Shown: positions 2,374-45,650, numbered from the stretch's first letter. The stretch: 64,000 nt of DNA from an uncultured Candidatus Saccharibacteria bacterium (GCA_964402035.1 CAYOAM010000001.1:24261-88260); one strand, 5' to 3'. Translations and numbers: made by a program. The notes: generated by a model not told the origin, from the sequence alone.

Positions 2374-3012
2374 TTAATTGTTGGTGGTAACGGTGCCTGG
2401 GAAAAAACTTGCTGAGGCTACGGGCAGTAGCCGCACTAGTGTCCTTCCAATAATCATATTGTCGCGTAACACTCCCCAGACCCGTGAGTCGGAGCTTGCA
2501 TTACGGTTGTCGCCCATGACGAAATATTCGTGCTCACCTAGCGTCTCCGTAATGAGACCATCTGGACGCATGTCCGCGATATAGGGCTCATCGAGCACAA
2601 ATCCATCCGGATGTTGTTCGTTTTTGATTGACACGGTGTTTCCCTGGATAGAGAGTGTGTCACCAGGAACACCGATGATGCGTTTTATAAAGAATTTTGA
2701 TGGGTCTTTAGGATATTTGAATACGATGACTTCACCGCGCTTTGGGTCATTGAAGTGATAGGTGAGCTGGTCGACGATCAAATATTGCCCGGTCCTAAAT
2801 GTGGGATCCATAGACGCACCCTGCACAATAAACGGTTGTGCAACAAACATGCGAATGGGCACCACAATGAGTAGTGCAACAAAGGTAAAGCGCAGTATTT
2901 CAATCAAAAAATTCTCTTCTTTTTTTGCAGGCGGCGTAGTCGGCGTGACAGGAGGAGTGTATGGTGTTTGTGGAGTAGGCGCTGTTGAAATAGGCTCCAT
3001 AAAATAATTCAA
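2374..3012 (-). CDS. lepB: signal peptidase I
   Basis: N-terminal TM segment, GASMDPTF (the S26 Ser box, SM-E/D-PT) and GDNRNASSDSRVWG (box E). Confidence 0.85.
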   Translation of the reverse strand: MNYFMEPISTAPTPQTPYTPPVTPTTPPAKKEENFLIEILRFTFVALLIVVPIRMFVAQPFIVQGASMDPTFRTGQYLIVDQLTYHFNDPKRGEVIVFKYPKDPSKFFIKRIIGVPGDTLSIQGNTVSIKNEQHPDGFVLDEPYIADMRPDGLITETLGEHEYFVMGDNRNASSDSRVWGVLRDNMIIGRTLVRLLPVASASFFPGTVTTNN

Positions 3013-10000: not shown

Positions 10001-11308
10001 ATGGCTACACTGCGACCATTTCAAGTTATCCTCATCGGTATCTTTCTTGCGCTCGGCATCGGAGGTATTGTCATGTTTGCCTTGTTTAAAGGACCTGGCG
10101 GTAAAGACAATCCATATGGGAATAAGGTGGTGATTTGGGGTACGCTCGACGACGCTCCTTTTATTGAAACTTTGATTGCGCTTCGCGAAGTAGACAAAAA
10201 TGCTAGTGTTATTTCGTATGTTGAGAAAGACCCGCGTACCTTTGAACAGGAACTTTTAAATGCATTGGCTGAAGGACGAGGGCCTGATCTCGTGGTGTAT
10301 CCGCAGAATACACTTTTGGCGAATCAAGGAAAGATTATGGCTGTTCCGTATGCCAACTTTGATCTTCGCACGTATAGTGACACCTATATCGATGGCGCAA
10401 GTATTTTCTTGCGCCCTGATGGCATTGCAGCTCTCCCGATCGCTGTCGATCCCATGGTAATGTATTGGAATAAAGACATCTTTGCCACCAAAGGTCTAGC
10501 GCGTCCGCCCTTCACCTGGGAGGAGATGCTCTCGGTTGCGGTGCCAGCGATCGCTGAAGTCACGACCGACCGCACGATTGTGCGTCCCGCACTTGCTTTT
10601 GGAGAGTATGCAAATGTGCGCAATGCAAAAGATATCCTTGCCATGCTCTTTATCCAAGCCGGGAGCAATATGGTCATCGCGCGAAATCAAGGGTATGAAG
10701 TGGAGCTCAACAATTCAGTCGAGCAGGGTATACCGCCTGCGCTCGCAGGTCTGCGCTTTTATACGGAGTTTTCCAATCCCGCCAAGAGTGTCTATACATG
10801 GAATCGCTCCATGCCACAGGATCGCGATGCATTTCTTGCCGGTGATCTTGCTATGTATTTTGGTTTTGCGAGTGAGTACGCGTCGCTGCGCTCGGGGAAT
10901 CCCAATTTCAATTTTGATGTTGCTGATATTCCACAGGGCAGTGAAGTACGGCTGAAAAAGGGGTATGGTACCTTTTATGGCATATCGCTTATGCGCAATT
11001 CTCAGAATGTCGCTGGTGCATACAAGGCACTTTTTGCGCTTACGGGACCTACACAAGTTGCCACCTATGCTAGGACGTTACGTGTTGGCGGTGTGTACCG
11101 CGCTTCGTTTAACGGTATCCCCCAAGATCCATTTTTGGCCGTCGTAGCACGTACTGCCTTGATTGCACGGGGGTGGCTTGATCCAAACCGCAATGCAAGC
11201 GACAATGTCTTTAGGCAAATGGTCGAGGATGTGACGTCGGGCCGCATCGAGCTTAGTTCTGCGATTAAAGACGCTGAGGGTCGATTGCAGCAGTTGGTGG
11301 GAGGGTAA
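10001..11308 (+). CDS. membrane-anchored extracellular solute-binding-protein-like protein (ABC-type SBP family 1-like)
   Basis: N-terminal TM segment, then KVVIWGTLDDAPFIETL...GPDLVV, which is typical of family 1 SBPs. No permease or ATPase genes are adjacent. Confidence 0.4.
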   Translation: MATLRPFQVILIGIFLALGIGGIVMFALFKGPGGKDNPYGNKVVIWGTLDDAPFIETLIALREVDKNASVISYVEKDPRTFEQELLNALAEGRGPDLVVYPQNTLLANQGKIMAVPYANFDLRTYSDTYIDGASIFLRPDGIAALPIAVDPMVMYWNKDIFATKGLARPPFTWEEMLSVAVPAIAEVTTDRTIVRPALAFGEYANVRNAKDILAMLFIQAGSNMVIARNQGYEVELNNSVEQGIPPALAGLRFYTEFSNPAKSVYTWNRSMPQDRDAFLAGDLAMYFGFASEYASLRSGNPNFNFDVADIPQGSEVRLKKGYGTFYGISLMRNSQNVAGAYKALFALTGPTQVATYARTLRVGGVYRASFNGIPQDPFLAVVARTALIARGWLDPNRNASDNVFRQMVEDVTSGRIELSSAIKDAEGRLQQLVGG

Positions 11309-11318
11309 ATATTATTTT

Positions 11319-11996
11319 ATGAAATGGATTATTATCTTTGCGGTCGTATTACACTTATTTTCAATTACTGTTGTAGTGCAGGCGCAGACATGGGGAGGGG
11401 CAAAACCAACGGTACAAGAATGGGGTGGGGCTCCGCTTGACCCGACATTAACCAATGAAAATAATGGTGGTGTATTGGGTGATATCAATCAGAACACACA
11501 GCCCGCTTCATATTCGGGTGGCGAAGGGTCACCTGGTGGTTATACTGGTGGTGAAGGTTCTCCATACGATTATGCAGGAGGAAAAACTAGTGCACCAACG
11601 ACCAAGACGGGTACGGTAGATGGGGGCGAAAAGCCCGGTACGGTCGACGGGGGAGATCTTCTGCGTCCCGGGGAAGATGGTGCTGGTTTTGGTCCTGCTG
11701 GTAGAGATGGTGGTGGCAACATAGGAGGCTCAATCTCACTCCAGAATCCTTTAAAGGCGACATCAATCCAGCAATTCTTTTTGATGATCATAGACATCAT
11801 GCTCGTCTTTGCGGTGCCGATCATCGTCTTCTTTCTCATCCTCGCCGGTTTCAAATACGTGACCGCGCGTGGCAATACGGAGCAAATAAAGCAGGCTACG
11901 ACTGCACTCACGTGGGCGCTCGTGGGAGGTGTGCTCATTTTGGGAGCAAAAATATTACTCGAAGTCATTCAAAATACTGTCGATGCGCTTCGCTAA
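11319..11996 (+). CDS. secreted Gly-rich protein with a C-terminal TrbC/VirB2-like two-helix pilin-type domain
   Basis: Signal peptide, a GG/GT low-complexity region, then hydrophobic helix, GNTEQ loop and second helix (TALTWALVGGVLILGA). Confidence 0.5.
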   Translation: MKWIIIFAVVLHLFSITVVVQAQTWGGAKPTVQEWGGAPLDPTLTNENNGGVLGDINQNTQPASYSGGEGSPGGYTGGEGSPYDYAGGKTSAPTTKTGTVDGGEKPGTVDGGDLLRPGEDGAGFGPAGRDGGGNIGGSISLQNPLKATSIQQFFLMIIDIMLVFAVPIIVFFLILAGFKYVTARGNTEQIKQATTALTWALVGGVLILGAKILLEVIQNTVDALR

Positions 11997-12321
11997 ACTC
12001 GCGCCGTATCTGTCATATGCTGGCGTTTGCAGCAGCTTTGTCATTTCTGTTTTTTTTCCACATGCTCTCTATGCGGCGACCTTTGCAAGTCTGGTAAACA
12101 GTTTTCTCGGAGTACTCGGTCTTATCATCCCCCTTATCTTTGCCCTCACATTTTTGGTCATCGTCTGGGGTGTAGTGCAGGCATGGATCCTGAATGCAGG
12201 TAATGCCGAAAAGGTGAGTGAAGGACAGATGATAGCACTCTGGGGCATTATTGGTCTTGTCGTCATGGCGGGCATGTGGGGTCTCATTGCGCTTGTACGC
12301 ACTTCGTTATTTAGTTTTTAG
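11983..12321 (+). CDS. TrbC/VirB2-like small two-TM protein (pilin-type)
   Basis: Signal peptide ending AxA. LIFALTFLVIVWGVVQAWILNAGNAEKVSEGQMIALWGIIGLVVMAGMWG. The ORF is open from 11929 but overlaps the upstream gene; the ATG at 11983 is the likely start. Confidence 0.5.
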   Translation: MRFAKLAPYLSYAGVCSSFVISVFFPHALYAATFASLVNSFLGVLGLIIPLIFALTFLVIVWGVVQAWILNAGNAEKVSEGQMIALWGIIGLVVMAGMWGLIALVRTSLFSF

Positions 12322-12419
12322 AACCCATGGGCCTGTACACAGCCAGTATGCTCAATATCTGCGCATTTGCTATACTGTACCTATCCATTTATTGGGGTAA
12401 TTATTGTTTAACTTCTTCT

Positions 12420-12785
12420 ATGTTAAAGAAAATTGGTTTTATCGGACTTTCATTTCTTCTTCCAGCATTCGCCTTCGCGCAGTCTCCGGCGGGTAATTTG
12501 GGCTACTTTGGTAACTTTGCAAATGAGGCAATCAAAGTAGTCAATAATATTTTAATTCCTCTTGTATTTGCACTAGCTTTTTTGGTGTTTGTGTGGGGGT
12601 TGCTAAAGTACTTTATTTTTGGGGGTGGTAATACAGAGAGTCAAGAGCAAGGAAAACAACTCATGATCTGGGGTGTTGTAGCGTTCGTGGTCATGGTGTC
12701 GCTTTGGGGTATCGTAAGTGTCATTAGTACCAGTCTCCAGATAGGAGGTGGTACGGTTAAGATTCCGGCACCTCTCACCAGATAA
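12420..12785 (+). CDS. TrbC/VirB2-like small two-TM protein (pilin-type)
   Basis: MLKKIGFIGLSFLLPAFAFA signal. LVFALAFLVFVWGLLKYFIFGGGNTESQEQGKQLMIWGVVAFVVMVSLWG. Confidence 0.5.
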   Translation: MLKKIGFIGLSFLLPAFAFAQSPAGNLGYFGNFANEAIKVVNNILIPLVFALAFLVFVWGLLKYFIFGGGNTESQEQGKQLMIWGVVAFVVMVSLWGIVSVISTSLQIGGGTVKIPAPLTR

Positions 12786-12844
12786 GGGTCTTTTCTACAT
12801 GATCGCTGTTTTTTGTTGGAGTCAACATTAATGGCTTTAGTGGT

Positions 12845-14350
12845 ATGCCTAGAAATAGTTCAGTCCTTATAAAAACTACTGCCGGTACAGTATTGGCGGT
12901 AGTTTTGCTATTCGACTTTTTGTTTGCAATACAGGTGCAAGCTGCGGTCAGTACTCGGGTTTCGCAAGTATCTTATTTGGACGGATATGCACAGGTTGGT
13001 GCGGTTGGTGCGTCTGATGAACAAAATAAAGTAGTAGGGAATACGCAAACGCAGAAAGGGGCTCAGGCTCTCGATCCTACACAGAAGACAAGCAATGCTA
13101 TCCCTGCAACAAACAACACTTCACCTGAAAGTGTTCCCGATATCTCAAACGGTTGGTCAGAGTTCTTTAGTAAGACTGCACCAGAAAACTTTGCTTCGGC
13201 TACGCCACAGGAGTCTTATCAGTATGATAATAATCAGAGACCAATAACTAATCCAAATAGTATCCCGCAACAAATAACTCCTCCTGCACAGAAGACCCCT
13301 GTATCAGACACGGTCGAAGATTCATATCAATATGGTGCAGCCAAAGAAGAGTATCAGTATGCGCCTGATGATCGGCAAGGTACCAAGCAGACAGGGGAAA
13401 ATTATGGGTACGCTAACGTGAATCCGTCGCCAAATACACAGGGTGTAACCAATAGCAGTAACAGTAATTTCGGCAGTAGGTATGCGGGTACATTCAATAG
13501 CGAGGATCTCAATTGGGGATTTGGAATCTTGGGAACAGTGATGCCTTTCGGTGGTCTTATTGGTTTAGGTGTGCGCGGTCTGATTGCTTCAGGAATTCCG
13601 GTTACCTATGATTGGGAATTAGCACCACCGCCTAAAGATCTTACGACAGACGATGAGGCCAATGGACTGTCGCGAAGTGGCTTTGATCCTGTGACGGGTA
13701 TGGCAACTGGTGAAAGAAGGGGTGATATATCAGTATCGAGCGCACCACTGGATCCTCCAAAAGATGATTTTGATGCACGTATGGATCGTGCAATGGCGGA
13801 GATTGCAGCAGATAAAGCAGCAGGCAAAGGAAATCCTCCTGGCGAACTTGACTCAACGCAGACGGGAGGGCTCATTGGAGGCATTGCTGGATTTTTTGAT
13901 GGTCTTAGTAAAAGCATCGGTGACCTATTTGGATTTGGAGAGGACGCACCAACATCGGGCGTATCTACGCCAGGTCAATCGACATCCGTAGAGGTCGGTG
14001 CGGTGAGTGGAGAGGCACCCCCATCGACTAACGGAGACCTTGAAACGAGTAGGCCAGGTCCAGGTACCAACAGCGCACCTTCGAGCAATGCCACTGCTCC
14101 AGATTATGGGCCCGCTTTGGGTCCATCACATGGTCCAGGTAGTCCAGCTGTTGAAGTACCATCAGCTCCAGGTGGAGCACCTCCGAGTGGTGGACTTGTT
14201 GATATTGATGAAAGCGGCATACCAGGTTCGTCGAATTTTTCTGGATTTAGCGGTTCGACTGAAATCGAGGGCGGTGATGTTGAGGTCGGTGGCGATGCAC
14301 CGGATGGCGGAGAAGGTGAGGGAGGGGATGGCAGCGATGGGGGAGAATAA
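12845..14350 (+). CDS. large secreted/surface low-complexity protein (501 aa)
   Basis: N-terminal signal/TM segment. Q/N/P/S-rich and Gly/Asp-rich regions, with an internal hydrophobic segment (GILGTVMPFGGLIGLGVRGLIASGIP). Embedded in the pilin-like cluster. Confidence 0.45.
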   Translation: MPRNSSVLIKTTAGTVLAVVLLFDFLFAIQVQAAVSTRVSQVSYLDGYAQVGAVGASDEQNKVVGNTQTQKGAQALDPTQKTSNAIPATNNTSPESVPDISNGWSEFFSKTAPENFASATPQESYQYDNNQRPITNPNSIPQQITPPAQKTPVSDTVEDSYQYGAAKEEYQYAPDDRQGTKQTGENYGYANVNPSPNTQGVTNSSNSNFGSRYAGTFNSEDLNWGFGILGTVMPFGGLIGLGVRGLIASGIPVTYDWELAPPPKDLTTDDEANGLSRSGFDPVTGMATGERRGDISVSSAPLDPPKDDFDARMDRAMAEIAADKAAGKGNPPGELDSTQTGGLIGGIAGFFDGLSKSIGDLFGFGEDAPTSGVSTPGQSTSVEVGAVSGEAPPSTNGDLETSRPGPGTNSAPSSNATAPDYGPALGPSHGPGSPAVEVPSAPGGAPPSGGLVDIDESGIPGSSNFSGFSGSTEIEGGDVEVGGDAPDGGEGEGGDGSDGGE

Positions 14351-14385
14351 GATGCGAGAGCTTTATATTGGTGTATTATAGAACT

Positions 14386-14862
14386 ATGGTTTTAAAACAT
14401 CTTGTGCTTCGAGTATCCGCTCTAGTAACGGTTATCGGAGTGCCGACTTTTGTATTTGCACAAGACCCCTCGTTTGGAGGAATAGGTCGTCTTATTAGTG
14501 ACGTACTTTCGCTAATAGAATGGTATCTCATTCCGCTAGTTTTCTCTCTCTCCTTTCTTCTTTTTTTGTGGGGTCTCTTTAATTTCTTTTTTGTAGGTGG
14601 AGGAAATGCGGAGTCACGAGAGGCGGGACGTCAGTTGATGATGTGGGGAATTGTAGCGTTTGTCGTTATGGTTTCTATATGGGGTATTGTTTCTGTAGTA
14701 GCCTATAGTTTTGGTTTTTCAGGGGGATATGTACCCCCATTGCCATCGATTCCAATGCCTGGTGGTGGGTCGGGAGGTGGTGGAGCCCCTATGCCACCAC
14801 CAGCTGCGCCACCTGTTTCAGGTGGCCCAACCGCAATGCCGTGGGAGCCGGGAATCTATTAA
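14386..14862 (+). CDS. TrbC/VirB2-like small two-TM protein with a Gly/Pro-rich tail
   Basis: Signal peptide. LVFSLSFLLFLWGLFNFFFVGGGNAESREAGRQLMMWGIVAFVVMVSIWG. The TTG at 14368 or the ATG at 14386 could be the start. Confidence 0.5.
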   Translation: MVLKHLVLRVSALVTVIGVPTFVFAQDPSFGGIGRLISDVLSLIEWYLIPLVFSLSFLLFLWGLFNFFFVGGGNAESREAGRQLMMWGIVAFVVMVSIWGIVSVVAYSFGFSGGYVPPLPSIPMPGGGSGGGGAPMPPPAAPPVSGGPTAMPWEPGIY

Positions 14863-14865
14863 TGT

Positions 14866-15153
14866 ATGATTGCATTCGCACAAGAACATATCGTGTACGC
14901 CCAGTCTTTTCTGGATAAGATAAAAGCTGTTATTCTCTATCCGCTCATCTCGCTTATGCTTGGTGTAGCTGTCGTCGTATTTCTCTGGGGGATTTTTGAA
15001 ATGGTGATGCACGCAGAAAATAGCGAAGCGCGAAGTACGGGTCGTACACATATGCTTGCAGGTATTATAGGGATCGTGGTCATGCTCTCTGCACTCACGC
15101 TACTGCGCATCGCTGCAAATACGTTTGGGGTTGAGGTGCCTTCAGGAAGTTAA
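14866..15153 (+). CDS. TrbC/VirB2-like small two-TM protein
   Basis: LMLGVAVVVFLWGIFEMVMHAENSEARSTGRTHMLAGIIGIVVMLSAL, the same helix / GN-E loop / helix pattern. Confidence 0.45.
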   Translation: MIAFAQEHIVYAQSFLDKIKAVILYPLISLMLGVAVVVFLWGIFEMVMHAENSEARSTGRTHMLAGIIGIVVMLSALTLLRIAANTFGVEVPSGS

Positions 15154-15178
15154 AAAACTACATAAAGAATAAGAAAAA

Positions 15179-15206
15179 ACCGGAAGCTGCATGCAGCTTC
15201 CGGTTT
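15179..15206. terminator. bidirectional Rho-independent terminator between convergent genes
   Basis: aaaaaccggaagctgc-atg-cagcttccggtttt: a GC-rich hairpin flanked by an A-run and a T-run. Confidence 0.7.
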
Positions 15207-15214
15207 TGAGTTCA

Positions 15215-15787
15215 CTACTTTTTTTTGCAGGTTCCTTCTACCCGCGGGTACAAGTTTACGTCCCCTGTGCCAACGCCGTGGAACTGGAAAAATCTTCCAG
15301 TCACCCCATCCTCGACCCAGGTCTTCATGTCATCCGAAACCAACACGATGGCTGATTTCGGCATGGCGTAATCCAGGCAGTTTGCCCGGGGTATTTCGTA
15401 GTACTTTTTGCTGAACATGTTATTTTTGTTCAGCGTTATTGTCGTCTTGCCAACCGGCAAAACGATTTTGGTTGTGGTGATGTCATCCCACCACCACCCC
15501 ACTGAACCAATTCCTCCTAGAAGAAGGAGGAGCAGGATCATCCACATGCCCAAGCCACCAGACTTGTGGCTGTCTCCATGCCCGGCGGTTTTCGCCGCCG
15601 GTGGGGGAGCTGCTGCCGCCGGCTGAGGCGTGGCGGGAACAGCTCCTGCGGCTGGTGGTTGTGGCGTTGGCGTGGAAGGTGTTGATCTTGCATTGCGTTT
15701 GGATAAACGCAATCCCCATACAATTAGACTCACAACAAAGATTGCTGTGATGAACCCAATCAGCTGCAAGTCTTCGAAGATTTCCAT
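15215..15787 (-). CDS. membrane protein with a Pro/Ala-rich linker (possible NfeD-like partner of the SPFH protein)
   Basis: N-terminal TM, a PTPQPPAAGAVPATPQPAAAAPPPA linker, a second TM, and a C-terminal beta-rich domain. It lies immediately downstream of the SPFH gene on the same strand. The NfeD assignment is inference. Confidence 0.35.
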   Translation of the reverse strand: MEIFEDLQLIGFITAIFVVSLIVWGLRLSKRNARSTPSTPTPQPPAAGAVPATPQPAAAAPPPAAKTAGHGDSHKSGGLGMWMILLLLLLGGIGSVGWWWDDITTTKIVLPVGKTTITLNKNNMFSKKYYEIPRANCLDYAMPKSAIVLVSDDMKTWVEDGVTGRFFQFHGVGTGDVNLYPRVEGTCKKK

Positions 15788-15798
15788 TGATCGCTCCC

Positions 15799-17160
15799 TT
15801 ACGTTTTGGAAGGCGGAATTGTCTTTGCAGCTTCCGCTATACCAAGAACAGTTCCTATGAGACCGTCAGGGCCTGGCGGTGTGATGATAACCTTGTTGTT
15901 GCCTCCCGCAACTTCTTGAGCGATCTGGGCAGCGAGAACGTCCTTACCAGTAACTTTTAAGACCGTCGCCATCTTCTGGAGGCCCTTAGCGCTTTCTTCA
16001 ATTAAGGCTCTTTTCGCGCCAGCTTTCGCGTTCCCAACTCGTGTTTCTTCGAATGCCTTAGCACGGGCAGCGTTTTTATCTGCTGCCATTTGTCCTTCAG
16101 ACTTCACGCGCGAAGCCATGCTTTCGATCTTTGCTTCAGCGGCCATTTGAAGTTTCTTATTGTAGTCATGTCCCGGGTTGAAGCGGGTGACCTGCGCGAA
16201 GTATATTTCAACACCAAGAGTCAGCGTTTGAAGTTGTACCTTGAGCGCGAGCCATTCTTCGATGAGCCCTTTGTGCTTCATGAGCTCATCGTACGTCAAC
16301 TTGCCGCCGATTTCGCCAAGGTAGCCCTCCATCTTGTCGTTGACTTGTCGGACTACTTCGAGTACCCGATCTGAGATCTTGGCACCCCCCTTGATCTTGT
16401 TGAGGAATTCATTTCGACGTTCACCAATAATTGGGTCTACGTGCCGATATAGATCCCAGAAGCGAGGTTTCGAGAGTCCAAGAGCAATCTGGGCCGAAGC
16501 CTCGATGTTGACTGCTTGAGCAGTGGCAGAGCCTTTCAGGTCTCCTGTGCACGTAAAGAAGTAAGGGTACTCTTGTTTGACGTCTATGACGATCAGCTTA
16601 CCATCTTTGTCTCTTGACTCCCATTGAATGTTGCCTGAGGCAGCAGGCAACTCTGCCTGAGCTCGTACGGTGGGTTCGCTTCTTTTTGTGAAAAGGAAAA
16701 CGGGAGCCCACTTTGGTCCATTGTCGAAAATGTACGCTGGCTTGCCGAAGAATTCAATTCCGGCAATTTCGTCATTCTCGACCTTGAAGAATCCTGCCAG
16801 TAAATAGGCGAATACAGGTATGGGGGCAAACCACCAGGGATTGATGACGATGCTCTTGCCCATGCTCGACGGGAGCATGAAGTACATCGCGACGAAGTAT
16901 GCGACGATCAAGATTCCCACAACTGCGAATGATGCTCTGGTGTAAATCCACTCACTGACACCTGGTGTTGTCTTTAGGAACTCCACTCGATCGGAATCAA
17001 GCTTTTTCCTCAGCGCTCCGATGTGTAGACGGAGCCAAGATGCAACCGCGGCGTCACCTTTATCCCTATCAGGGAAGTCGGGAACGGTAAGTTGGCCTTG
17101 CTGCGTCTGTGACGAGGTCGGCGCCGCAGAGGGAATTTGATTGGAACTCGATGTAATCAT
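15799..17160 (-). CDS. SPFH/band-7 (flotillin-like) domain membrane protein
   Basis: N-terminal TM hairpin, then a band-7-like core and an Ala/Lys/Glu-rich coiled-coil tail (AAEAKIESMASRVKSEGQMAADKNAARAKAFEETR) typical of flotillin/YqiK. Confidence 0.55.
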   Translation of the reverse strand: MITSSSNQIPSAAPTSSQTQQGQLTVPDFPDRDKGDAAVASWLRLHIGALRKKLDSDRVEFLKTTPGVSEWIYTRASFAVVGILIVAYFVAMYFMLPSSMGKSIVINPWWFAPIPVFAYLLAGFFKVENDEIAGIEFFGKPAYIFDNGPKWAPVFLFTKRSEPTVRAQAELPAASGNIQWESRDKDGKLIVIDVKQEYPYFFTCTGDLKGSATAQAVNIEASAQIALGLSKPRFWDLYRHVDPIIGERRNEFLNKIKGGAKISDRVLEVVRQVNDKMEGYLGEIGGKLTYDELMKHKGLIEEWLALKVQLQTLTLGVEIYFAQVTRFNPGHDYNKKLQMAAEAKIESMASRVKSEGQMAADKNAARAKAFEETRVGNAKAGAKRALIEESAKGLQKMATVLKVTGKDVLAAQIAQEVAGGNNKVIITPPGPDGLIGTVLGIAEAAKTIPPSKT

Positions 17161-27898: not shown

Positions 27899-30082
27899 AT
27901 GACTTCGCTTATGGAAACATGGTCTCGCAATTTTATTGTGTACGCTACGTATGCAACAGCATTCCTGCCGTATTTTTTTTGGAATGCACTACTATTTCCA
28001 GGTGTAACGACAAAATCCTTTGTCTTTTTTGCTTTGACAGCATGTGTGGCAGTATTGTTTGCGTATCGACTGTATCTTGGGTACGAACGAGAAATTAAAA
28101 TTACGCCATTGCAGGTAAGTTTTGTTGTACTGGTGGGGCTGTTCATAGTCACGTCGTTCTTTGCAGAAAATCCCCAACTGGCTCTATGGAGCACAATCGG
28201 TCGCATGGAGGGTGCGTTTTTTTGGTTGCATATGGCAGTGTGGTTTGTCATTACCTCAACCGTATTGACTCGACACGAATGGATGAACTTTATTAGGACA
28301 GCAACTATTGCCGGCGCTGGTGTTGTTTGTTTGGGGTTGCTCCAGTTTGCTGGCTATTTTGCAATGGATGATCGTGTAGATATTTTGTTTTCAAATCCGA
28401 TTTACCTCGCCGTCTACGCCTTGTGGATTTTTGGGTTGAGCATTTTCTTGTGTTCTCAGACTAGTGATTTTAGGCAGACATATGGCTACATAGTAATCGC
28501 TCTATTCTCGCTCATTGTTATTGTCCTTACATCAACACGAAGCGTTATTATAGGGCTAGGAGGAGGTGCGTTCGTTGCCGCCATGTTCTATGTATTTCTA
28601 CGGACAACGTTGCCTTCGGTACGCCGCAGCATCTTGCTTACTCTTGCTGTTCTTATATTAGGATTCGGTGGAATCTTGGCGCTCGCTCACACACATACCT
28701 ATGACATGCCACTACTTGTTGATCGTCTGGATGAAGTGGTATCTAAACCAATAACAGATCAACCACGATATTTTATGTGGGTCGCATCGTTGCGTGGATT
28801 TAGTGAACGACCACAAGGGTGGGGGCTCGAGCAGTACGCAAGTGTATTTGATCGCTTTGTGCAACCACAATACTTTAATCCACAGATTGTGCCGCATGAC
28901 GAACTGTGGGTCGACCGCACACACAATATGTATCTTGAGGTACTTGTTGCGGGTGGCTTTGCAGCTTTTTTTTCATATATATTTTTCTGCATATATATAG
29001 GGTACATGGTATGGAGGAAGTCTTCTCTCAGTGTCATCGGCCGCTTGGTGTTGTTGGGTCTATTAGTGGCATACCTGATTCATAATCTGTTTGCGTTCGA
29101 TACGCTCATGAGTTTGTTAGTATTTTTAAGTGTATGTAGTTTTATCGGAGCCACATCGCAAGAGACACAATTTAGACTTAATAAACCTCTGATCGTGCAT
29201 GGTTGTGCCGTGTTGCTCTGTGTATTTGCGGCCGTATCCTTGATGTCTATATATCCACGCGCAGTATTTACGTATGAGATGCGGGCTGCGCTCAATACAT
29301 ACGCTCATGATATTGGTGCCGGAACTAAAGAACTCGCAGCACTCACTGCACGGGATGTTGTTCTACCTGATAGAGATCTTGCGGAACAAACCCTGTATGC
29401 AAAGTTGTTGGAAACGATGGACTCAGGAGAGTTTTCAAAATATAGCCAAAATTTTGAATCAGTATTATCTGGCGTCACAGCAGCAGGTACCAGAACGGAT
29501 TGGCGCTCACTACGTACCGTATATCTGCGGGGGCTTTTTCTCAAACGGTCTGGCTTACCACATGAGGCACTACCATACTTGCATGAAGTCCATGATCGTA
29601 TGTCTCAGAAATTTGCGCTAACGGCAGAATTAGTACGAGTCCATCGTGACCTGCATGATTTTGAACGCATGGCATATTATGCAAAGGAGATGTACGACTT
29701 TGATCTATCGAATAGAGATGCAGCCGCACTCTATGCGTCAGCACTCATATATGAGGGAAAGGCCGATGCATCACAACAACTACTAAAGAAAGCTTTTGGA
29801 TCGACCAACGTTGTCCATCTTGATCTTATTCGTGCTCGCATAGATACTGGTGAGCTCCAGTTAGCAAAGGAACAGGCTTCAGCGCTGACGGTGGCGTATT
29901 ATGACAGTCCAATATCCTGGTCACTACTTGCCGAAGCACAGTATCTGTCAGGAGACATAGAGCGAGCAAAACGAACCATTGATCGCGGTTTAGAAAAAGT
30001 AAGTCGACAAAAACAGCTGCTAACAATGCTCCGGGATGGCATCAAGAAAGGTGATCCAGATTTTACGATTCTGAATCCGTAA
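27899..30082 (+). CDS. O-antigen ligase/Wzy_C-like polytopic membrane protein with a C-terminal TPR-repeat domain
   Basis: About 12 TM segments with DRTHNMYLEVLVAGGFAAFF (the Wzy_C H-N-x-YL-x-x-L-x-E-x-G motif). The C-terminal ~280 aa are soluble and TPR-like (AALYASALIYEGKADASQQLLKKA...). Confidence 0.55.
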   Translation: MTSLMETWSRNFIVYATYATAFLPYFFWNALLFPGVTTKSFVFFALTACVAVLFAYRLYLGYEREIKITPLQVSFVVLVGLFIVTSFFAENPQLALWSTIGRMEGAFFWLHMAVWFVITSTVLTRHEWMNFIRTATIAGAGVVCLGLLQFAGYFAMDDRVDILFSNPIYLAVYALWIFGLSIFLCSQTSDFRQTYGYIVIALFSLIVIVLTSTRSVIIGLGGGAFVAAMFYVFLRTTLPSVRRSILLTLAVLILGFGGILALAHTHTYDMPLLVDRLDEVVSKPITDQPRYFMWVASLRGFSERPQGWGLEQYASVFDRFVQPQYFNPQIVPHDELWVDRTHNMYLEVLVAGGFAAFFSYIFFCIYIGYMVWRKSSLSVIGRLVLLGLLVAYLIHNLFAFDTLMSLLVFLSVCSFIGATSQETQFRLNKPLIVHGCAVLLCVFAAVSLMSIYPRAVFTYEMRAALNTYAHDIGAGTKELAALTARDVVLPDRDLAEQTLYAKLLETMDSGEFSKYSQNFESVLSGVTAAGTRTDWRSLRTVYLRGLFLKRSGLPHEALPYLHEVHDRMSQKFALTAELVRVHRDLHDFERMAYYAKEMYDFDLSNRDAAALYASALIYEGKADASQQLLKKAFGSTNVVHLDLIRARIDTGELQLAKEQASALTVAYYDSPISWSLLAEAQYLSGDIERAKRTIDRGLEKVSRQKQLLTMLRDGIKKGDPDFTILNP

Positions 30083-31334
30083 CCATTCGGTCTATCGCAA
30101 CAATAATGATGCCAGAGGATAATTCATTAATAATTTTTGCCCATATGACGCCGGTAAGGCCAAAAGGAACTGCTAAAGAAATCATAATTAAGATGTGCGC
30201 AATGGTGGCGATCTGTGAGTAGGTTTGTAACGCCCGCATGTTACGTATGGCAACCCAATAAATCGTACATACGAGCGTTGGGTAGGCAATGATTGATAGT
30301 AAAAGAATGCGCGCAAACGGGGCAACTTGCGTAAATGTCGCAAATAACTGAGGCATTATATACTCGACAAAAAAAAGTAATGTGATACCCCCGCATATTC
30401 CCAAGATGCTAGCGACAACAAGCCATGTCTCAAAAGGACGCTGCTGCTCATCCTGCTGTATGTGCGGCAATATATAGAACTGTAACAAATTTTTGTACGC
30501 GGTTTTGAAATGCTCAATAGGGAGTGTTGCAATCACGTAGGTAGCCAAGGCGAGCGGGCCTAGCACTATGAAGACGAGTATTTTTTCAATGGCAGGCAAC
30601 AGAGCCAATGGAAACTGTATAAGCGTTAATTGTCGACCAAACAATGAGTCAGCGTACGCTTTTCGGTGTTGGTGAATGTGCGTGGTATGTGTTTTTGGCA
30701 ACTTTTGTGCTACATACATAAGTGCGAGTAGGGTGGTCGCGGCTTGGCTGCCGAGGTACAGAATAATAATTCCACTTGCGGAATTAAATAATATGCCACC
30801 AAAGGTAGCACCTACGAGCGCGCTCAAAACAATGCCAACATCGACTACAATTTTTATTTTGAATGCTTTAATGCCAGCCAGCACTAGCCCGGGTACCAGA
30901 TAGAGATTCGAGAGGGGAGTTATCAGTCCACCAATGACGCAGGCGAGCCCTAATTCATACTGACCGATACTGTAGTGATAGCATGCGACAAGTACTGACC
31001 CTAAGATTGAACCTGCACCCCACGCATATTGGGAACGAATCATAGCCCAATACCCTTTTTGCGTAATGGTTGATGCACTATGACTCAAAACTTGACTTAT
31101 GCCTGGTAGCGACCAAAACGAAAGGATTGCGAAAAGGGCAATAAGATATCGTATTTCGCCGAAGCGTTCCGGTGAGTTGAAACGGGCAAGCAGCACCACA
31201 ATACCCGCAGAGCCAATACTTAAGAGGATTTGATTTACTACGACGTAGTAGAGCGACGTGTGTTCTTGCGCAAATGAAAACACGGTGCGTAATCGACGCT
31301 GAAGCCACATCATAGGAGTGCTAGGATCAACCAT
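30063..31334 (-). CDS. polytopic membrane protein, putative oligosaccharide flippase (MOP/Wzx-like)
   Basis: 423 aa, about 12 TM helices, between two Wzy_C-like genes. The family call is weak. Confidence 0.35.
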   Translation of the reverse strand: MVDPSTPMMWLQRRLRTVFSFAQEHTSLYYVVVNQILLSIGSAGIVVLLARFNSPERFGEIRYLIALFAILSFWSLPGISQVLSHSASTITQKGYWAMIRSQYAWGAGSILGSVLVACYHYSIGQYELGLACVIGGLITPLSNLYLVPGLVLAGIKAFKIKIVVDVGIVLSALVGATFGGILFNSASGIIILYLGSQAATTLLALMYVAQKLPKTHTTHIHQHRKAYADSLFGRQLTLIQFPLALLPAIEKILVFIVLGPLALATYVIATLPIEHFKTAYKNLLQFYILPHIQQDEQQRPFETWLVVASILGICGGITLLFFVEYIMPQLFATFTQVAPFARILLLSIIAYPTLVCTIYWVAIRNMRALQTYSQIATIAHILIMISLAVPFGLTGVIWAKIINELSSGIIIVAIDRMVTDSES

Positions 31335-32488
31335 AGATGCCTAAAATGAAGGGTGTCTATAAAAAAACTTTGAGCCAAAATACCGAGCACGGTAGAAAAT
31401 AACACAATCGCGTAGACGTCATGCGTCGTCGTAATAGAGCGATAGGAACGTCTCAAAAGTAAGAACAGAAATAGCAAAAGTATGACAAGGCCGACGGCGC
31501 CGTTCTCAATCAATACTCGCAGATATGTATTGTGTGCCGAAAAACCACGATAGGAATATATTTCATAACTTCCGTTCCCAGAACCCCGTAGTATTTCAAT
31601 GAAGCTTCGTTCAACAAGAACGTCGTATGCGCGTTCTAGATTCTCAATACGCGGAGTGTCTGATGCGGTTATGCGATTTTGTAACCGCATAATCGGTTCT
31701 GTCTGGCCCAGTGCTGCAAAGCTTCCTACCGCAATCGTTGCTAGAAAGAGTCCAATATACACGAGGCGTCGAAGCACAATAATACGTGGTAGGAGTGTGT
31801 ACTTGAGTAGTATATAGGTTACTGCAGCTATGGAAATTAATGCGTTGATCCAAGCCCCGCGAGATACAGTAAGTATGAGTGCGAACACGAGCAGTATGGT
31901 TGGTAGTGCATACAGTATCCTTTTTACTCTATAGGTGGTTGTGTACATAGCAACAAGTGCACTAATAAGCGCTGGAACTAGAAATGCGCCAAAGACATTC
32001 GGATCAGAGAAGAACACTTGCAATCGACCGGTATCAGAAAAGAGTGATGGAAGTGCGAAAGTTTGCCGCACTGCATACGCAAGACATCCGATAAGTGCCG
32101 TAAGTGTAGCGCCCAAGCAATACCCACTCCACAGTGCCTCGCGGTAGGTTCGCCAATAGTTGATAAGAAAAAATAAGCCAATGAGGTAGAGAGTAGCTTG
32201 TGTGAATGCTAGTTGGCTTTCAGGCAAGAATAGTGCGCTGCATATAACAAGTATCAGAAAGGCATAAAGCGCTTGTGTGTGGCGCTCCGCCAATGTTACT
32301 TTAAAATATGGTAGCCAGTGATGCCGGGTAATAGTCGTGATGCCAAGGAGAGCAAGCGCGATATCGATTGGGCTCAGCGACGAAAATGAAAAAGCAAATA
32401 GGATGCCAAGTGATACAAAGAGGGTGCGGTTGGCGAGGGTAAGCGGCATAGTGATGACGGCAATTGTCGGGCACACTATAGCATACAT
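31310..32488 (-). CDS. O-antigen ligase/Wzy_C-like membrane protein
   Basis: Multi-TM with FSAHNTYLRVLIENGAVGLVILLLF (the Wzy_C/WaaL HN-YL...E-G motif). Confidence 0.55.
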   Translation of the reverse strand: MYAIVCPTIAVITMPLTLANRTLFVSLGILFAFSFSSLSPIDIALALLGITTITRHHWLPYFKVTLAERHTQALYAFLILVICSALFLPESQLAFTQATLYLIGLFFLINYWRTYREALWSGYCLGATLTALIGCLAYAVRQTFALPSLFSDTGRLQVFFSDPNVFGAFLVPALISALVAMYTTTYRVKRILYALPTILLVFALILTVSRGAWINALISIAAVTYILLKYTLLPRIIVLRRLVYIGLFLATIAVGSFAALGQTEPIMRLQNRITASDTPRIENLERAYDVLVERSFIEILRGSGNGSYEIYSYRGFSAHNTYLRVLIENGAVGLVILLLFLFLLLRRSYRSITTTHDVYAIVLFSTVLGILAQSFFIDTLHFRHLWLILALL

Positions 32489-34290: not shown

Positions 34291-36186
34291 CTACTTTAGA
34301 CCAAAATACCGTGGGAATAGGGGAATGCTTCCGCCTTTAGTTTTTCCTTCGACAATGGGGAGTTGCAATACCGTGGATGGCCATGGAATTGGAAGTGTGC
34401 CGGTAAATGGTTTTTTGCCAAATAAGACATCGGCGACACCAGCGCCTTCACTTCCTGGAAGCCATGCAACGACAACTGCGTTCCAGTCTTGAATCTGATC
34501 AGTAATCATGAGGGGTCGTCCAGTGACTAACACAACGACAACGGCGTCGCTTACTTCCTGCAGTCGATAAATATTAGCAAGATCTTCCTCACTGAGAGAT
34601 GGATTTTGATTATCACCCCAACCTTCTGCGTAGGGTGCTTCACCCACAATAGCAATTCCAATGTCTGCTTTTAGAGAGTTGAGAGGGAAGTTTGCTTGGG
34701 CATCAAACTCTATCGTCGTTCCTTGTGGGGCAGACTCGCGTACACCCTGCAGGATCGAAGTTGCGCCCGGTAGCCAATTTCCGTCGATTCCTTGCCACTC
34801 GACAGTCCAGGCACCTGCTTGTTTCCCAATATTGTCGGCAGCACTTCCTGCGACGCGGATCAGAGATGTGTTTCTCTTAATAGGCAGTAGAGTGCTCTTA
34901 TTTTTGAGAAGTACCAGAGACTTGGCTACCGCATCGCGCGCAAGTGTGCGGTGCGCAGGTGATCCAATCTGGTCAATATTTTTTTTATCTAACGTATCAA
35001 AAAGGCCCAGTTTAAACTTTGCGGTTAGGATTCGCTCCACCGCATCGTCTATTCGTGATTCTGCGATATCACCATTCTTCACGGCTCGCCGAATATTTCT
35101 GACAAACTCTTGATAATCAAACGGTAGCATGACCATATCAACACCTGCATTGATGGCAGTGACTGCCGCAGTGTAATTTCCTCCAGGGATTTCATATACG
35201 CCATACCAATCCGACACCACAAAACCTTTGAATCCAAGTTCGTCTTTCAGTACTGATTGTACGAGATAGGAAGATGCTGCAAGTTTTGTCTCACCCCAGC
35301 TATTGAGTCCGACCATGACACTGGCTGCGCCTGTTTCGATCGCTTTTTTAAATGGAGGAAGGTAGTACGTACGGAGTTTCTCCTCATCTATCAAGGTCAT
35401 CCCTTGGTCAATTTTAAAATTCTCGTTACTCGCACTGCCCCAGAGCATCCCCCCGGCGCCGATGTAATGCTTTGGTGTTGCAAGGACTGAAATCGTTGAT
35501 GATGCCTCAGAGGGATTTTCTTGTAACCCACGTATGTATGCACTCCCAAGTTTACTTACGAGCGTAGGGTCATCTGAGAATGTTTCATACACTCGTCCCC
35601 ACCTGATGTCCTCGGGCATGTCGTACGTGGGGGAGTAGCTCCACCGCACATTGGTGGCGAGTAGTTCATCCGCAGTTGCCCGAGCAACATTTTCGACGAG
35701 TGTTTCATTGCCGCTTGCTCCGAGTCCAATGAAATGTGGAAAGACCGTGGCGCCAGGGATATTGCTGTGGCCATGGATCGCGTCAACGCCATACAAGATA
35801 GGGATGCCTAGGCGTGATGCACGCGATTCTGAGACATAGGTGTCGACCATATTTTTCCAACCCAAGGCTGTATTGTCTTCTGGTTTTCCTCCAAATCCGC
35901 TGAGCATTCCACCAAGGCCATACGTTTGAATATCCTCAAGGTCTCGCAAACTATTTTTTTCTACCAATGCCATTTGTCCGATTTTTTCTTCGAGTGTCAT
36001 GTGTGACATGAGATCAGTGACTCTCGCTTCAACAGAAGCTTTGCCGTCTCGATAGAGAGGATTTTCAGAAAGTTCGGGTATATCGGTAAAGAAAAAGTCA
36101 ATCAGATAATAACTAGCGACTACGCATAGAAGTATACAAACAAGAATTGTAGCCCTCGGTTGCTTCTTAAGAAAACGAAGAGTCAT
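34291..36186 (-). CDS. glycoside hydrolase family 3 (beta-hexosaminidase/beta-glucosidase-like), membrane-anchored
   Basis: GIPILYGVDAIHGH, KGFVVSDW (catalytic Asp region), and the GH3 C-terminal domain. The ORF track extends to 36273, overlapping the upstream gene; the internal Met (MTLRFLKKQ...) followed by a TM segment is the likely start. Confidence 0.75.
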   Translation of the reverse strand: MTLRFLKKQPRATILVCILLCVVASYYLIDFFFTDIPELSENPLYRDGKASVEARVTDLMSHMTLEEKIGQMALVEKNSLRDLEDIQTYGLGGMLSGFGGKPEDNTALGWKNMVDTYVSESRASRLGIPILYGVDAIHGHSNIPGATVFPHFIGLGASGNETLVENVARATADELLATNVRWSYSPTYDMPEDIRWGRVYETFSDDPTLVSKLGSAYIRGLQENPSEASSTISVLATPKHYIGAGGMLWGSASNENFKIDQGMTLIDEEKLRTYYLPPFKKAIETGAASVMVGLNSWGETKLAASSYLVQSVLKDELGFKGFVVSDWYGVYEIPGGNYTAAVTAINAGVDMVMLPFDYQEFVRNIRRAVKNGDIAESRIDDAVERILTAKFKLGLFDTLDKKNIDQIGSPAHRTLARDAVAKSLVLLKNKSTLLPIKRNTSLIRVAGSAADNIGKQAGAWTVEWQGIDGNWLPGATSILQGVRESAPQGTTIEFDAQANFPLNSLKADIGIAIVGEAPYAEGWGDNQNPSLSEEDLANIYRLQEVSDAVVVVLVTGRPLMITDQIQDWNAVVVAWLPGSEGAGVADVLFGKKPFTGTLPIPWPSTVLQLPIVEGKTKGGSIPLFPRYFGLK

Positions 36187-36217
36187 TTGTTTTAGTATAC
36201 AGGATAGAGAACTTGCT

Positions 36218-36754
36218 CTAAGAGACAGAGGTAAGCAGCTTCGTATATGTTCCTTCGATATCGCCAAGTACACTTGCGATAGTTGTAATATTCAGCCGCT
36301 CACTCATTGCTTTTGTCATCCTCTCAAATAAGTTCTCGATTTCAGGCAGATCATCTTTAGAAAGTTTCGGAGAACCATCTTCACCCCAGACACCTCGCTT
36401 TAGTAGTCTATCAATTGCTTCATCTTTCTCAGTTTCAATATAGATTTCATAAAATGAAACATCAAGCCTTTTTGCAATTTCTTCAAATGCTTGAGCGTGG
36501 GTGGAGTCGGTGAGCAAGTAGGGGAGTACCACATCATACCCAGCTTCAAGTTGATTTTCTGTTATTGATTTGGTGTGTTCGAAAACCAATTTTCTTGCTT
36601 CATCCTCATGTTTGCGCCACTGACCCATCATGCCGATGATCTGGTCTCCTTCAATCGCTATTGCAAGTGGATGCTCGTCAACATATCGTTTTGCAAGCGT
36701 CGTCTTGCCGCTTGCAGCGAAACCATACAGTAGAATCAGTTTAGGTTGTCTCAT
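36218..36754 (-). CDS. P-loop kinase (AAA_33/zeta-toxin-like fold)
   Basis: LLYGFAASGKTTLAKRY Walker A at the N-terminus. 178 aa. Confidence 0.5.
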   Translation of the reverse strand: MRQPKLILLYGFAASGKTTLAKRYVDEHPLAIAIEGDQIIGMMGQWRKHEDEARKLVFEHTKSITENQLEAGYDVVLPYLLTDSTHAQAFEEIAKRLDVSFYEIYIETEKDEAIDRLLKRGVWGEDGSPKLSKDDLPEIENLFERMTKAMSERLNITTIASVLGDIEGTYTKLLTSVS

Positions 36755-44261: not shown

Positions 44262-45089
44262 ATGATGTTCCGGATTTTATACAGCAGCACAATTTTATTT
44301 TTTGTTCCTGTTGCATATGCTGCTGCAAAGATTGTTCCTAATTGCCCAGTAAATGGCTGTCGAGCTTGCGATCTTGTGATATTGGGCAACAACCTTATAA
44401 CATTTCTTATTGGCATTGGGATTTTTGTTGCTGTGATCTCTATCGCCATCACAGCATTTCAAACAATAATAAGTGGTGAAAGTGGGGCACACGCATTGGG
44501 GAGCACAGCTACGAATATCGTCATCGGGATTATTATCATGCTTGCAGGGTGGCTGATTGTGGATACACTTTTGAAATTGTTGGTTGCTCCGGGCAAACTT
44601 GGACCGTGGAATGAAATTGAGTGTATTGAGAATCCTGGTATTGAGGAAGATCCAACTGTGGCGACAAAGCCGGGACGTATCGCATATGTTGCCGGTGGCG
44701 GTAAGGGATCGGGCGCACAATGTGGCGCAGGAAACACGGCTTGTAGTCCTGAGGCCTTGCAGGCACTTGGTATGACTCCTGCACAAGCCAATACGATGTC
44801 CTGTATTGCTATGACAGAGAGTGGTGGTTCCCCAAACGCCGTCAATAAAAATGGGGGAGCGTGCGGCACGTTCCAAATTCTTCCAAGTAATTGGAGAAAT
44901 GCTTCGCTTCATAAGGGGAGCTGTAATTCTGATGTCTCCTGTAATGACGCAACATGCAATGCGCAGGCGGCACAGTCGCTCATGGCTGGTCGCATCAAGG
45001 CAGGTAAGTCTGCGTATGGAGACTGGACGTGCCCGGGATGCAATAATAAAGCGCAGGCATGTGTCGATAAATACAATCCGGGAGGATAA
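44262..45089 (+). CDS. fusion protein: pilin-like N-terminus (CxxC + two TM helices) and C-terminal lytic-transglycosylase (SLT)-like domain
   Basis: Signal peptide, NCPVNGCRACDLVILGNNLITFL, two hydrophobic helices, then MTESGGSPNAVNKNGGACGTFQILPSNW (the SLT catalytic E-S ... GAxGxxQ pattern). Cys-rich tail. Confidence 0.5.
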   Translation: MMFRILYSSTILFFVPVAYAAAKIVPNCPVNGCRACDLVILGNNLITFLIGIGIFVAVISIAITAFQTIISGESGAHALGSTATNIVIGIIIMLAGWLIVDTLLKLLVAPGKLGPWNEIECIENPGIEEDPTVATKPGRIAYVAGGGKGSGAQCGAGNTACSPEALQALGMTPAQANTMSCIAMTESGGSPNAVNKNGGACGTFQILPSNWRNASLHKGSCNSDVSCNDATCNAQAAQSLMAGRIKAGKSAYGDWTCPGCNNKAQACVDKYNPGG

Positions 45090-45092
45090 TAT

Positions 45093-45644
45093 ATGATCAA
45101 AAATATTCTAATCATTGTTGCGTTGTGTATTGCACTGGGTCTGGGTACACTCCTTGTCGTGAGGATGTTTTCTGAGGACACGGAGCCAGTCACGGATCCT
45201 GTCGTCAATCCTTTTCCAGTATCTTCCGGAACACCGATCCACACCCCAGAAACTCTCACTATCAGCACTCTTGGTGGTCCGTCAGTGACCGTTCAAAATT
45301 TTATCGACAAAACTACGACCGCTGAAGATCCAGTAAATACCGGATACTATTATCTGGGAAATCATTTTCCCTTTGACGGATCGGTACCAGACGCCTCTGA
45401 GGAAATACCGTTTGTTATTTCATACATTGCATCAACACAATTTTTTAATATTGTGTTGTATGAAGAGCCGCTTGCAACCTCGCGCATGCAGGCAGAACAG
45501 TACCTGAAGCAAACGCTCGGTATCACCGAGCAAGAGATGTGCTCATTGCCGTATTCAGTGAGCGTGCCAAATTTTGTAAGTCCGACGCATGCCGGAGAGA
45601 GTCTCGGTTTTAGTTTTTGTCCGGACAGTGTGCCGCTGCCGTAG
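45093..45644 (+). CDS. hypothetical membrane-anchored protein (183 aa)
   Basis: N-terminal TM, between the two pilin-fusion genes. Confidence 0.4.
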   Translation: MIKNILIIVALCIALGLGTLLVVRMFSEDTEPVTDPVVNPFPVSSGTPIHTPETLTISTLGGPSVTVQNFIDKTTTAEDPVNTGYYYLGNHFPFDGSVPDASEEIPFVISYIASTQFFNIVLYEEPLATSRMQAEQYLKQTLGITEQEMCSLPYSVSVPNFVSPTHAGESLGFSFCPDSVPLP

Positions 45645-45650
45645 TTTATT

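Follow-up and report, generated by a model that had tools for sequence, protein, structure and literature searches.

An array of five paralogous small proteins of the pilin family of type IV secretion systems (T4SS) was identified on a 64,000-nucleotide stretch of chromosomal DNA deposited under the name of an uncultured Candidatus Saccharibacteria bacterium (GCA_964402035.1, CAYOAM010000001.1:24261-88260; this whole stretch is referred to below as the window). The genes, designated pilins A, B, C, E, and F, lie on the plus strand at positions 11319 to 15153 and enclose a further gene for a low-complexity protein, designated D. Their domain matches show that the products of the five small genes are homologous membrane proteins with two helices, belonging to the T4SS-pilin family, and, judging from gene order in relatives, the array is a feature of a core-genome block that is conserved across a clade. 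We consider it moderately probable that these VirB2-family paralogues are specialized subunits of a short pilus or conduit, built by a T4SS and contacting a host cell.

Family assignment and architecture of the array genes

All five small proteins matched the Pfam family PF18895 (T4SS_pilin) over their C-terminal ∼65 to 70 residues. Pilins A (11319 to 11996; 225 aa; 28.8 bits), C (12420 to 12785, with the open reading frame [ORF] beginning at 12327; 121 aa; 39.1 bits), and F (14866 to 15153; 95 aa; 31.8 bits), the last gene of the array, scored above the gathering threshold of 26.6 bits, while pilins E (14386 to 14862, with the ORF beginning at 14368; 158 aa; 26.3 bits) and B (11983 to 12321 as called, with a longer ORF from 11929; 112 aa; 21.9 bits) fell just below it and were linked to the family through their orthologues and through a local hidden Markov model (HMM) of the five domains (E values of 1e-33 to 1e-38; 1.6e-33 for B). 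At E<1e-30, this model retrieved only the five pilins among the 862 ORFs of the window, with one weak sixth match. The original prediction, which had been made from the sequence, had proposed five same-strand genes for small proteins ending in a two-helix hairpin, and both the ORFs and the presence of PF18895 in all five bear this out, no unrelated family having been assigned to any of them. As a second, subthreshold match, the family NF045849 (pilin-like conjugal transfer protein; cut-off, 40 bits) was obtained for A (25.6), C (28.8), E (21.1), and F (24.6). The classical family TrbC/VirB2 (PF04956; cut-off, 27.9), which had been named as the one to look for, gave no match at E<=1 among the window's five pilins but was matched (E<=0.1) by nine of 13 A-type or first-position orthologue domains, with a best E value of 4.2e-8, PF18895 being matched by all 13. 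Two further orthologues, those of the fetched loci L011 and L087, reached E values of 1.8e-4 and 3.3e-4 with PF04956, both below the cut-off. Matches to PF04956 would tie the lineage-specific set to the classical conjugative pilins. In addition, PF18895 was found in every one of ∼20 homologues of pilin C, which showed 35 to 55% identity.

Pairwise identity among the five pilin domains ranged from 20 to 53%. Two motifs had been claimed for the whole set, and both held in part: the loop motif GN(A/T)E is present in the alignment in A, B, C, and E, with ENSE in its place in F, and the second motif, (K/R)Q.M.WG, is present in B (GQMIALWG), C (KQLMIWG), and E (RQLMMWG) and fits A and F loosely. Signal peptides were judged by eye as n-h-c type segments ending in A-x-A and were recognized in A, B, C, and E; hydropathy likewise revealed a signal-like N-terminal segment plus two transmembrane (TM) segments in these four proteins and two TM segments only in F, so that the expected layout of a signal peptide followed by two TM segments applies to all but F. 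An AlphaFold2 (AF2) model of pilin C, built from 25 sequences, consisted of a signal helix and a hairpin (H28-65/H72-105), with a mean predicted local distance difference test (pLDDT) score of 79.9 and block means of 81 to 91 across residues 31 to 100.

Beyond the shared hairpin, the individual pilins differ in their extensions. Pilin A, the most TrbC-like type, has a signal peptide (..VVVQA/QT), a 117-aa Gly-rich extension (residues ∼24 to 140), an NPL motif, and a two-helix domain with the loop ILAGFKYVTARGNTE. Pilins B and C consist of a signal peptide (AFAFA/QS in C) and the hairpin, and pilin E, a paralogue of C with 53% identity, carries a signal peptide (FVFA/QD), the hairpin, and a Gly/Pro-rich C-terminal tail (residues ∼120 to 158); the Gly-rich N-terminal domain of A and the Gly/Pro tail of E are both as originally described. 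The hairpin of pilin F follows a short leader, MIAFAQ, without a hydrophobic signal core. F-type proteins lack such a core in general, as noted for the last array gene of the window, L003, L005, L007, L009, and L011, and in several orthologues the leader was likewise short, ending in A-x-A-Q/A (e.g., MIAFAQ or MPDFIIQKAYAQ). In the A type, the stretch that separates the signal peptide from the NPL motif varies among loci: it is missing in L007 and L009, consists of G/S/Q repeats in L003, L005, L006, and L010, holds an fn3 domain (E value of 5.7e-5, just below the cut-off) and a Pro/Thr linker in L011 (11838 to 12695), and holds four thrombospondin type-3 repeats (TSP_3; E value of 9.9e-25) in L087 (6134 to 7066). 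The presence of TSP_3 and fn3 modules on A-type orthologues supports an N-out, surface-exposed orientation.

Protein D (12845 to 14350, plus strand; 501 aa) lies between pilins C and E. It begins with a hydrophobic segment ending in ...QVQA/AVS and is of low complexity, being rich in G, S, P, A, T, and D (14% Gly, 11% Ser, 9% Pro, and 9% Ala), in agreement with the 501-aa secreted low-complexity protein that had been placed in the middle of the array; it is predicted to be secreted or anchored. No match to D was obtained in Pfam, NCBIfam, or PHROG, and among 5.8e9 clustered proteins and 1.84e9 representatives scanned exhaustively it matched only itself. Moreover, tblastn revealed similarity to D in no fetched locus, a D-like insert was present in no related array, and a comparison of D with itself found no internal repeats. 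The idea that D is a degenerate pilin or an offshoot of the Gly-rich region of A was rejected, as the HMM and BLAST signals were both nil. Lacking relatives in the databases and in the fetched loci, D is best described as a strict orphan of recent date in an array that is itself old; its gene would have been gained recently and be carried along in the operon, with a disordered, secreted, and probably accessory protein as its product. A different insert was observed in L010 (12266 to 13339, minus strand), where a 357-aa ORF with weak coiled-coil-type matches (TolA_bind_tri) separates the A-type gene from the one after it (the A-type gene being second in the array if a weak ORF at the first position is included), indicating that arrays accept foreign genes at various points.

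The array is tightly packed, with intergenic gaps of 3 to 99 nt and a 14-nt overlap between the end of A and the start of B. Upstream, a gene for a solute-binding protein (SBP)-like product (10001 to 11308, plus strand; 435 aa; PF13416, 1.9e-15; PF01547, 3.4e-14) that has a hydrophobic anchor or signal segment at its N terminus stops 10 nt short of pilin A. Downstream, between F and a convergent gene, a terminator scan and the sequence itself revealed a hairpin with a 14-bp stem and flanking A and T runs (15176 to 15207), likely a bidirectional terminator that closes the operon; the scan found no comparable hairpin within 10001 to 15153. From this arrangement, the array genes appear to be cotranscribed. 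Pilins E and F share one reading frame and are parted only by TAA TGT ATG (14860-14886). That they represent one gene split by a stop codon was considered and rejected, since the genes of relatives are separate, with spacing that differs, and the F type is always short. The GC content at third codon positions was 0.34 in D and E, compared with 0.41 to 0.50 in the other pilins, the SBP-like gene, and gyrA, which hints at a different recent history for that part of the array.

A conserved genomic block and its positional pilin types

The window genes are mostly of the housekeeping kind (S1, GyrA, IF2, ClpB, TopA, RelA, and SerRS), with FtsA and FtsZ upstream and seven tRNAs. Their nearest homologues occur in metagenome-assembled genomes named Candidatus Kaiserbacteria, Pacebacteria, Parcubacteria, or (TPA) Saccharibacteria, and it is by these record names only that the source is placed in the Parcubacteria/Kaiserbacteria group of the ultrasmall Patescibacteria. 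On the contigs of the pilin C homologues, the gene order was S1, a metallo-beta-lactamase-like gene, a small ORF, gyrA, a methyltransferase gene, the SBP-like gene, and the pilins, followed by two convergent membrane protein genes and, farther on, by RbfA and IF2. The block of gyrA, methyltransferase, SBP-like gene, and pilins was recovered by protein look-up or genome scan in 10 of 10 relatives (L003, L005, L006 to L011, L014, and L015). A GTDB scan with the SBP-like protein yielded six loci (34 to 45% identity; GyrA identity of 65 to 68%) with four or five pilins directly after the SBP-like gene. A metagenome scan queried with an alignment of A-type pilins returned another view of the same arrangement: the SBP-like gene stood just upstream in 73 of the 80 loci returned, the remaining 7 being truncated contigs. 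With ∼90 loci fetched overall, the block was present in every metagenome locus of at least 6 kb that reached far enough upstream. Complete arrays (n = 31) most often held four pilins (22 arrays), with five pilins in 7 arrays and six and seven pilins in 1 array each.

In a neighbor-joining tree built from 44 pilin domains of nine loci, the pilins clustered by position and not by genome. Judging from this tree, the types are orthologous by position: A leads, F closes the array, and B, C, and E lie in between. The A-type clade is marked by the NPL motif, a ..YAGF.YV.ARGN.. loop region, and a ..ILLGA.. second helix, while the F-type clade, found in all relatives, is always last and always 80 to 103 aa long. 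The other types are more restricted: the B type was found in the window, L003, and L005 only, the C/E duplication in the window and L003 only, and one first-position type in the more distant loci only. Such positional orthology indicates that the paralogues are old and specialized. As it persists despite a GyrA identity of only 65%, most copies are ancient and individually retained rather than recent tandem duplicates. Given the age of the types and the retention of all of them, they most likely differ in role (as major, minor, or surface-decorating subunits), and interchangeable antigenic variants are unlikely.

Several neighboring features were noted beside the array. An extra small gene positive with the pilin HMM lies between gyrA and the methyltransferase gene in L005 (5618 to 6049), L032, L037, L067, L073, and L089/L090; no such gene is present in the window, and Pfam was silent on the two copies scanned. 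The two convergent genes downstream of the array, on the minus strand, encode a 190-aa Pro/Ala-rich membrane protein (15215 to 15787) and a 453-aa protein with weak SPFH/Band 7 similarity (15799 to 17160). They are kept by position but hardly by sequence (only L003 versus L005, 26%) and were not counted as part of the system. Farther downstream, a pair of membrane proteins of the Wzy_C (O-antigen-ligase-like) type, of which one carries a TPR tail, and a 423-aa protein of no family are encoded at 27899 to 32488, and a GH3 glycosidase is encoded at 34291 to 36273, forming a surface-glycan neighborhood unrelated to the pilin array.

Type IV secretion context and candidate functions

A second pilin-related cluster (44262 to 46499), flanked by tRNA-Tyr and tRNA-Trp, lies 29 kb downstream of the array. 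Its first gene (44262 to 45089, plus strand) encodes a 275-aa pilin-transglycosylase fusion with a signal peptide, a Cys motif, a pilin-like domain (residues ∼35 to 110), and a C-terminal lytic transglycosylase domain (PF18896 SLT_3, 1.5e-7; PF01464 SLT, 4.5e-7; PHROG matches to transglycosylase and lytic tail protein), for which VirB1-type activity is predicted. Its last gene (45651 to 46499, plus strand) encodes a 282-aa fusion with a signal peptide, a Cys motif, a pilin domain (residues 37 to 113), and a Cys-rich C-terminal domain, and a 183-aa protein of no family with an N-terminal TM segment is encoded between the two (45093 to 45644, plus strand). The 275-aa and 282-aa proteins share 50% identity over 107 aligned residues (BLASTP, 3e-26), in an N-terminal module that runs from the end of the Cys motif through the two-helix domain to a GPW.EIEC motif. 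An HMM of related A-type/first-position pilins matched the former at 3e-9 and the latter at 5.3e-22; the 282-aa protein also matched PF18895 (2.6e-4; 21.4 bits, subthreshold), NF045849 (1.4e-4), and, by BLASTP, the first-position pilins of relatives with E values down to 1.7e-13. A single-sequence AF2 model of the 282-aa protein was confident for the hairpin only, with pLDDT of <50 in the C-terminal domain, for which Pfam, PDB, and PHROG provided no family. A motif in this domain (HRNGTCLD) raised the suspicion of an M15/LAS-type peptidase, which, with no Pfam, PDB, or PHROG match in its favor, is a guess. Relatives of this fusion were sought in JGI metagenomes, and none were found; likewise, we found no published account of pilin-hydrolase fusions in the literature that was searched. 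According to Table S2 of Wang et al. 2023 (PMC10633639), the T4SS locus of S. epibionticum contains a lysozyme-like gene and an M15B-like gene beside VirB4, PrgI, and VirB6, and six PF18895 pilins come after them. The resemblance of the 44262 to 46499 cluster to these lysozyme-like and M15B-like genes beside virB4 is suggestive.

Drawing on what is established for VirB2/TraA pilins, a sequence of steps can be proposed for the array proteins. Each pilin would be inserted by Sec/YidC with its N terminus outside, and signal peptidase I would cut A, B, C, and E at their A-x-A sites; a Peptidase_S26 gene is present in the window at 2374 to 3012. Once processed, the pilins would form a membrane pool of helical hairpins whose GN(A/T)E loop faces the cytoplasm; from this pool, a monoderm-type T4SS (VirB4/VirB6/PrgI) encoded elsewhere in the genome would extract them for polymerization into a short pilus or conduit in contact with the host cell. 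Within this structure, the pilin types may divide the roles of major, minor, or surface-decorating subunits, and type A would display its variable N-terminal module outside, Gly-rich here and of the fn3 or thrombospondin type in relatives. From homology at the sequence level, we infer that the array proteins may form such a pilus.

A T4SS-type role is favored by the second pilin-domain pair in the window, one member of which is fused to a VirB1-like SLT domain. Several observations nonetheless weigh against a T4SS-built pilus or conduit. Pfam detected no VirB3, VirB4, VirB6, PrgI, or coupling protein in the window plus 10 kb on each side (82 kb). On the 452,957-bp contig (ENA ERZ3430527, NODE_5), the window occupies ∼46 to 110 kb, and the DNA covered by this survey extends from ∼37 to 119 kb. 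The original prediction had stated that no VirB4, VirB6, or coupling-protein genes lie in the window, which stands, with the amendment that a VirB1-like hydrolase-pilin fusion and a second pilin-domain protein are present at 44262 to 46499. The ORFs scanned next to the arrays of relatives likewise included no T4SS genes; they encode MurJ, MiaA, ParB, RelA, ClpB, a spermine-synthase-like protein, or SPFH proteins or belong to no family. In addition, pilins B and E score under the Pfam gathering threshold, and F is without a signal peptide. A Foldseek search of the pilin C model against PDB returned nothing at E<=0.001 and just generic helix hairpins, which are nonspecific and make such a comparison uninformative for this fold, and a profile of the pilin alignment searched against PDB sequences found no solved pilin, with only a chance match to FliL (E value of 0.048). 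Moreover, no Patescibacterial PF18895 protein is yet known to form a pilus. That these systems make pili is an "intriguing possibility" in the words of a 2025 review (PMC12857230), and another review calls the role of the T4SS "completely unknown" (PMC11665869).

Alternatives have to be weighed against a T4SS-built pilus of specialized subunits. The proteins could be VirB2 homologues that no longer make an external pilus and serve the T4SS inside the envelope, as a required component of the membrane or of a channel, a reading that we regard as unlikely. Patescibacteria are monoderm, with a VirB4 of the MPF-FATA type whose classical members are pilus-less (PMC12102498); VirB2 is needed for substrate transfer whether or not a pilus is made (PMC12857230) and is required in Gram-negative systems making no visible pilus; and the window pilins are very hydrophobic, with short loops. 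Nevertheless, the TSP_3 repeats, fn3 domain, and long linkers of A-type orthologues fit an exposed surface structure best, the Gly/Pro tail of E is also predicted to lie outside, and five to seven conserved types would be many for the lining of a channel. It appears improbable to us that the fold has instead taken on a membrane function independent of any T4SS and linked to the SBP-like protein, the pilins being, for instance, small partners in uptake or sensing. This idea draws on the SBP-like gene, which ends a few nucleotides before the first pilin in every relative with upstream DNA and has no adjoining ABC permease or ATPase in the window, and on the finding that, among the ORFs scanned, T4SS genes lie near no array of the clade. 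However, because the whole block from S1 through gyrA, methyltransferase, SBP-like gene, and pilins to IF2 is conserved, a functional linkage between the SBP-like protein and the pilins is inseparable from general synteny. Homology to T4SS pilins (PF18895 and PF04956), the placement of this family inside the T4SS locus in Saccharimonadia, and the fusion of a pilin domain to a VirB1-like hydrolase in the window all point to T4SS-type envelope work.

A further possibility is that the array holds interchangeable major pilins that vary for antigenic or host-range reasons, as proposed for Bartonella Trw and Anaplasma, with D as another variable surface protein. High divergence among the paralogues, variable extensions on A and E, and an orphan within the array are features that such variation could produce, and it has been suggested for Patescibacterial arrays in published discussion (PMC12102498). 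We nevertheless find this very improbable, given that the types are positionally orthologous across relatives with a GyrA identity of only 65%, so that most copies are ancient and retained, and that C and E are the sole recent-looking pair.

If the array proteins are indeed specialized subunits of a T4SS-built pilus or conduit, a far-reaching version of this reading can be formulated, which, taken with all of its parts jointly, is quite unlikely. The pilins of the Parcubacterial clade would then constitute a fixed core-genome host-contact organelle: a heteromeric fiber of four to seven specialized subunit types, one of which shows swappable adhesion modules (Gly-rich, fn3, or thrombospondin repeats), with a coexpressed membrane-anchored SBP that captures host-derived nutrients at the fiber base and with pilin-fusion cell wall hydrolases (44262 to 46499) that could be loaded onto the fiber and breach the host wall.

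The importance of such arrays is illustrated by the only genetically tractable Patescibacterium, in which the T4SS and pilin array are essential for epibiotic growth. At the level of sequence, a fixed array with positionally orthologous types in a large Parcubacterial clade argues for a division of labor and against simple antigenic variation, exchangeable extracellular modules on one subunit type are what a host-recognition fiber would need, and pilin domains fused to peptidoglycan hydrolases may suggest a coupling of envelope-breaching enzymes to the structure.

Comparison with known pilin systems

Compared with the classical TrbC/VirB2/TraA pilins (PF04956), the window proteins are similarly small and share the layout of a leader peptide followed by two hydrophobic helices that a short polar loop connects, and orthologues of A reach 4.2e-8 with this family. 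Unlike them, the window proteins themselves miss PF04956, are not adjacent to virB3-virB4, and belong to a monoderm host; some members have long N- or C-terminal extensions, and one is without a signal peptide. The Mycoplasma integrative and conjugative element proteins Mbov_0395/MMCAP2_0565 (NF045849) offer a likeness from a wall-less/monoderm lineage, as small two-helix pilin-like T4SS proteins. Although NF045849 is the best NCBIfam match for A, C, E, and F, scores of 21 to 29 bits, below the cut-off of 40, indicate that these pilins are not equivalog members. The Trw copies of Bartonella are recent duplicates within the T4SS operon of a diderm, whereas those of the window are ancient, positionally orthologous, and apart from the machinery. 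The two systems resemble each other in a role in host contact proposed in place of DNA transfer. They are also alike in that several sequence-variable VirB2 (trwL) copies stand in a row (PMC12857230).

The closest counterparts are found within the Patescibacteria. Predicted pilins were reported as essential in a Saccharibacterial T4SS cluster by Wang et al. 2023, and the genes SEML1_0014 to SEML1_0019 of S. epibionticum ML1 are PF18895 genes in this essential T4SS locus (PMC10633639). Quinonero-Coronel et al. 2025 (PMC12102498), whose published set comprised 3,035 assemblies, 2,417 of them with VirB4, used PF18895 and PF04956 and described VirB2-like pilins in 1,948 VirB4-containing assemblies, with pilin genes near virB4 in 1,135 of the 1,948. 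That study defined an array as at least two PF18895/PF04956 genes in a Patescibacterial genome, in tandem or with one non-pilin gene between them, and reported 441 arrays in 383 assemblies; arrays were said to be most abundant in Saccharimonadia and Microgenomatia, and the "Sec-secreted array" of N. lyticus TM7x is a further example. With five pilin genes and one intervening non-pilin gene, D, the locus described here is an array under this definition.

Two differences from the published arrays stand out: the present array lies outside a T4SS locus, in a core block behind gyrA and the SBP-like gene, and its source is of the Parcubacteria/Kaiserbacteria type, not of Saccharimonadia or Microgenomatia. 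In the available portions of the published array accounts, we found neither a fixed core-genome position behind gyrA and the SBP-like gene, nor positional orthology of the paralogues, nor passenger modules on A-type pilins, nor a signal-peptide-less F type, an orphan insert, or pilin-hydrolase fusions. The likenesses, in turn, extend to family (PF18895), layout (a signal peptide plus two helices), chromosomal location, and the absence of a relaxase nearby, and also to divergence, with identities of 20 to 53% here and a mean of 25% and a maximum of 54% among published Patescibacterial array pilins (PMC12102498). The proposal of a paralogous set of pilin subunits, made in the original prediction, is therefore in line with the published Patescibacterial VirB2 arrays (PMC12102498; PMC10633639). 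As the locus agrees with them in every tested respect, it belongs to a kind of array already known in the phylum, and, such arrays having been described there between 2023 and 2025, it is a further example and nothing categorically new.

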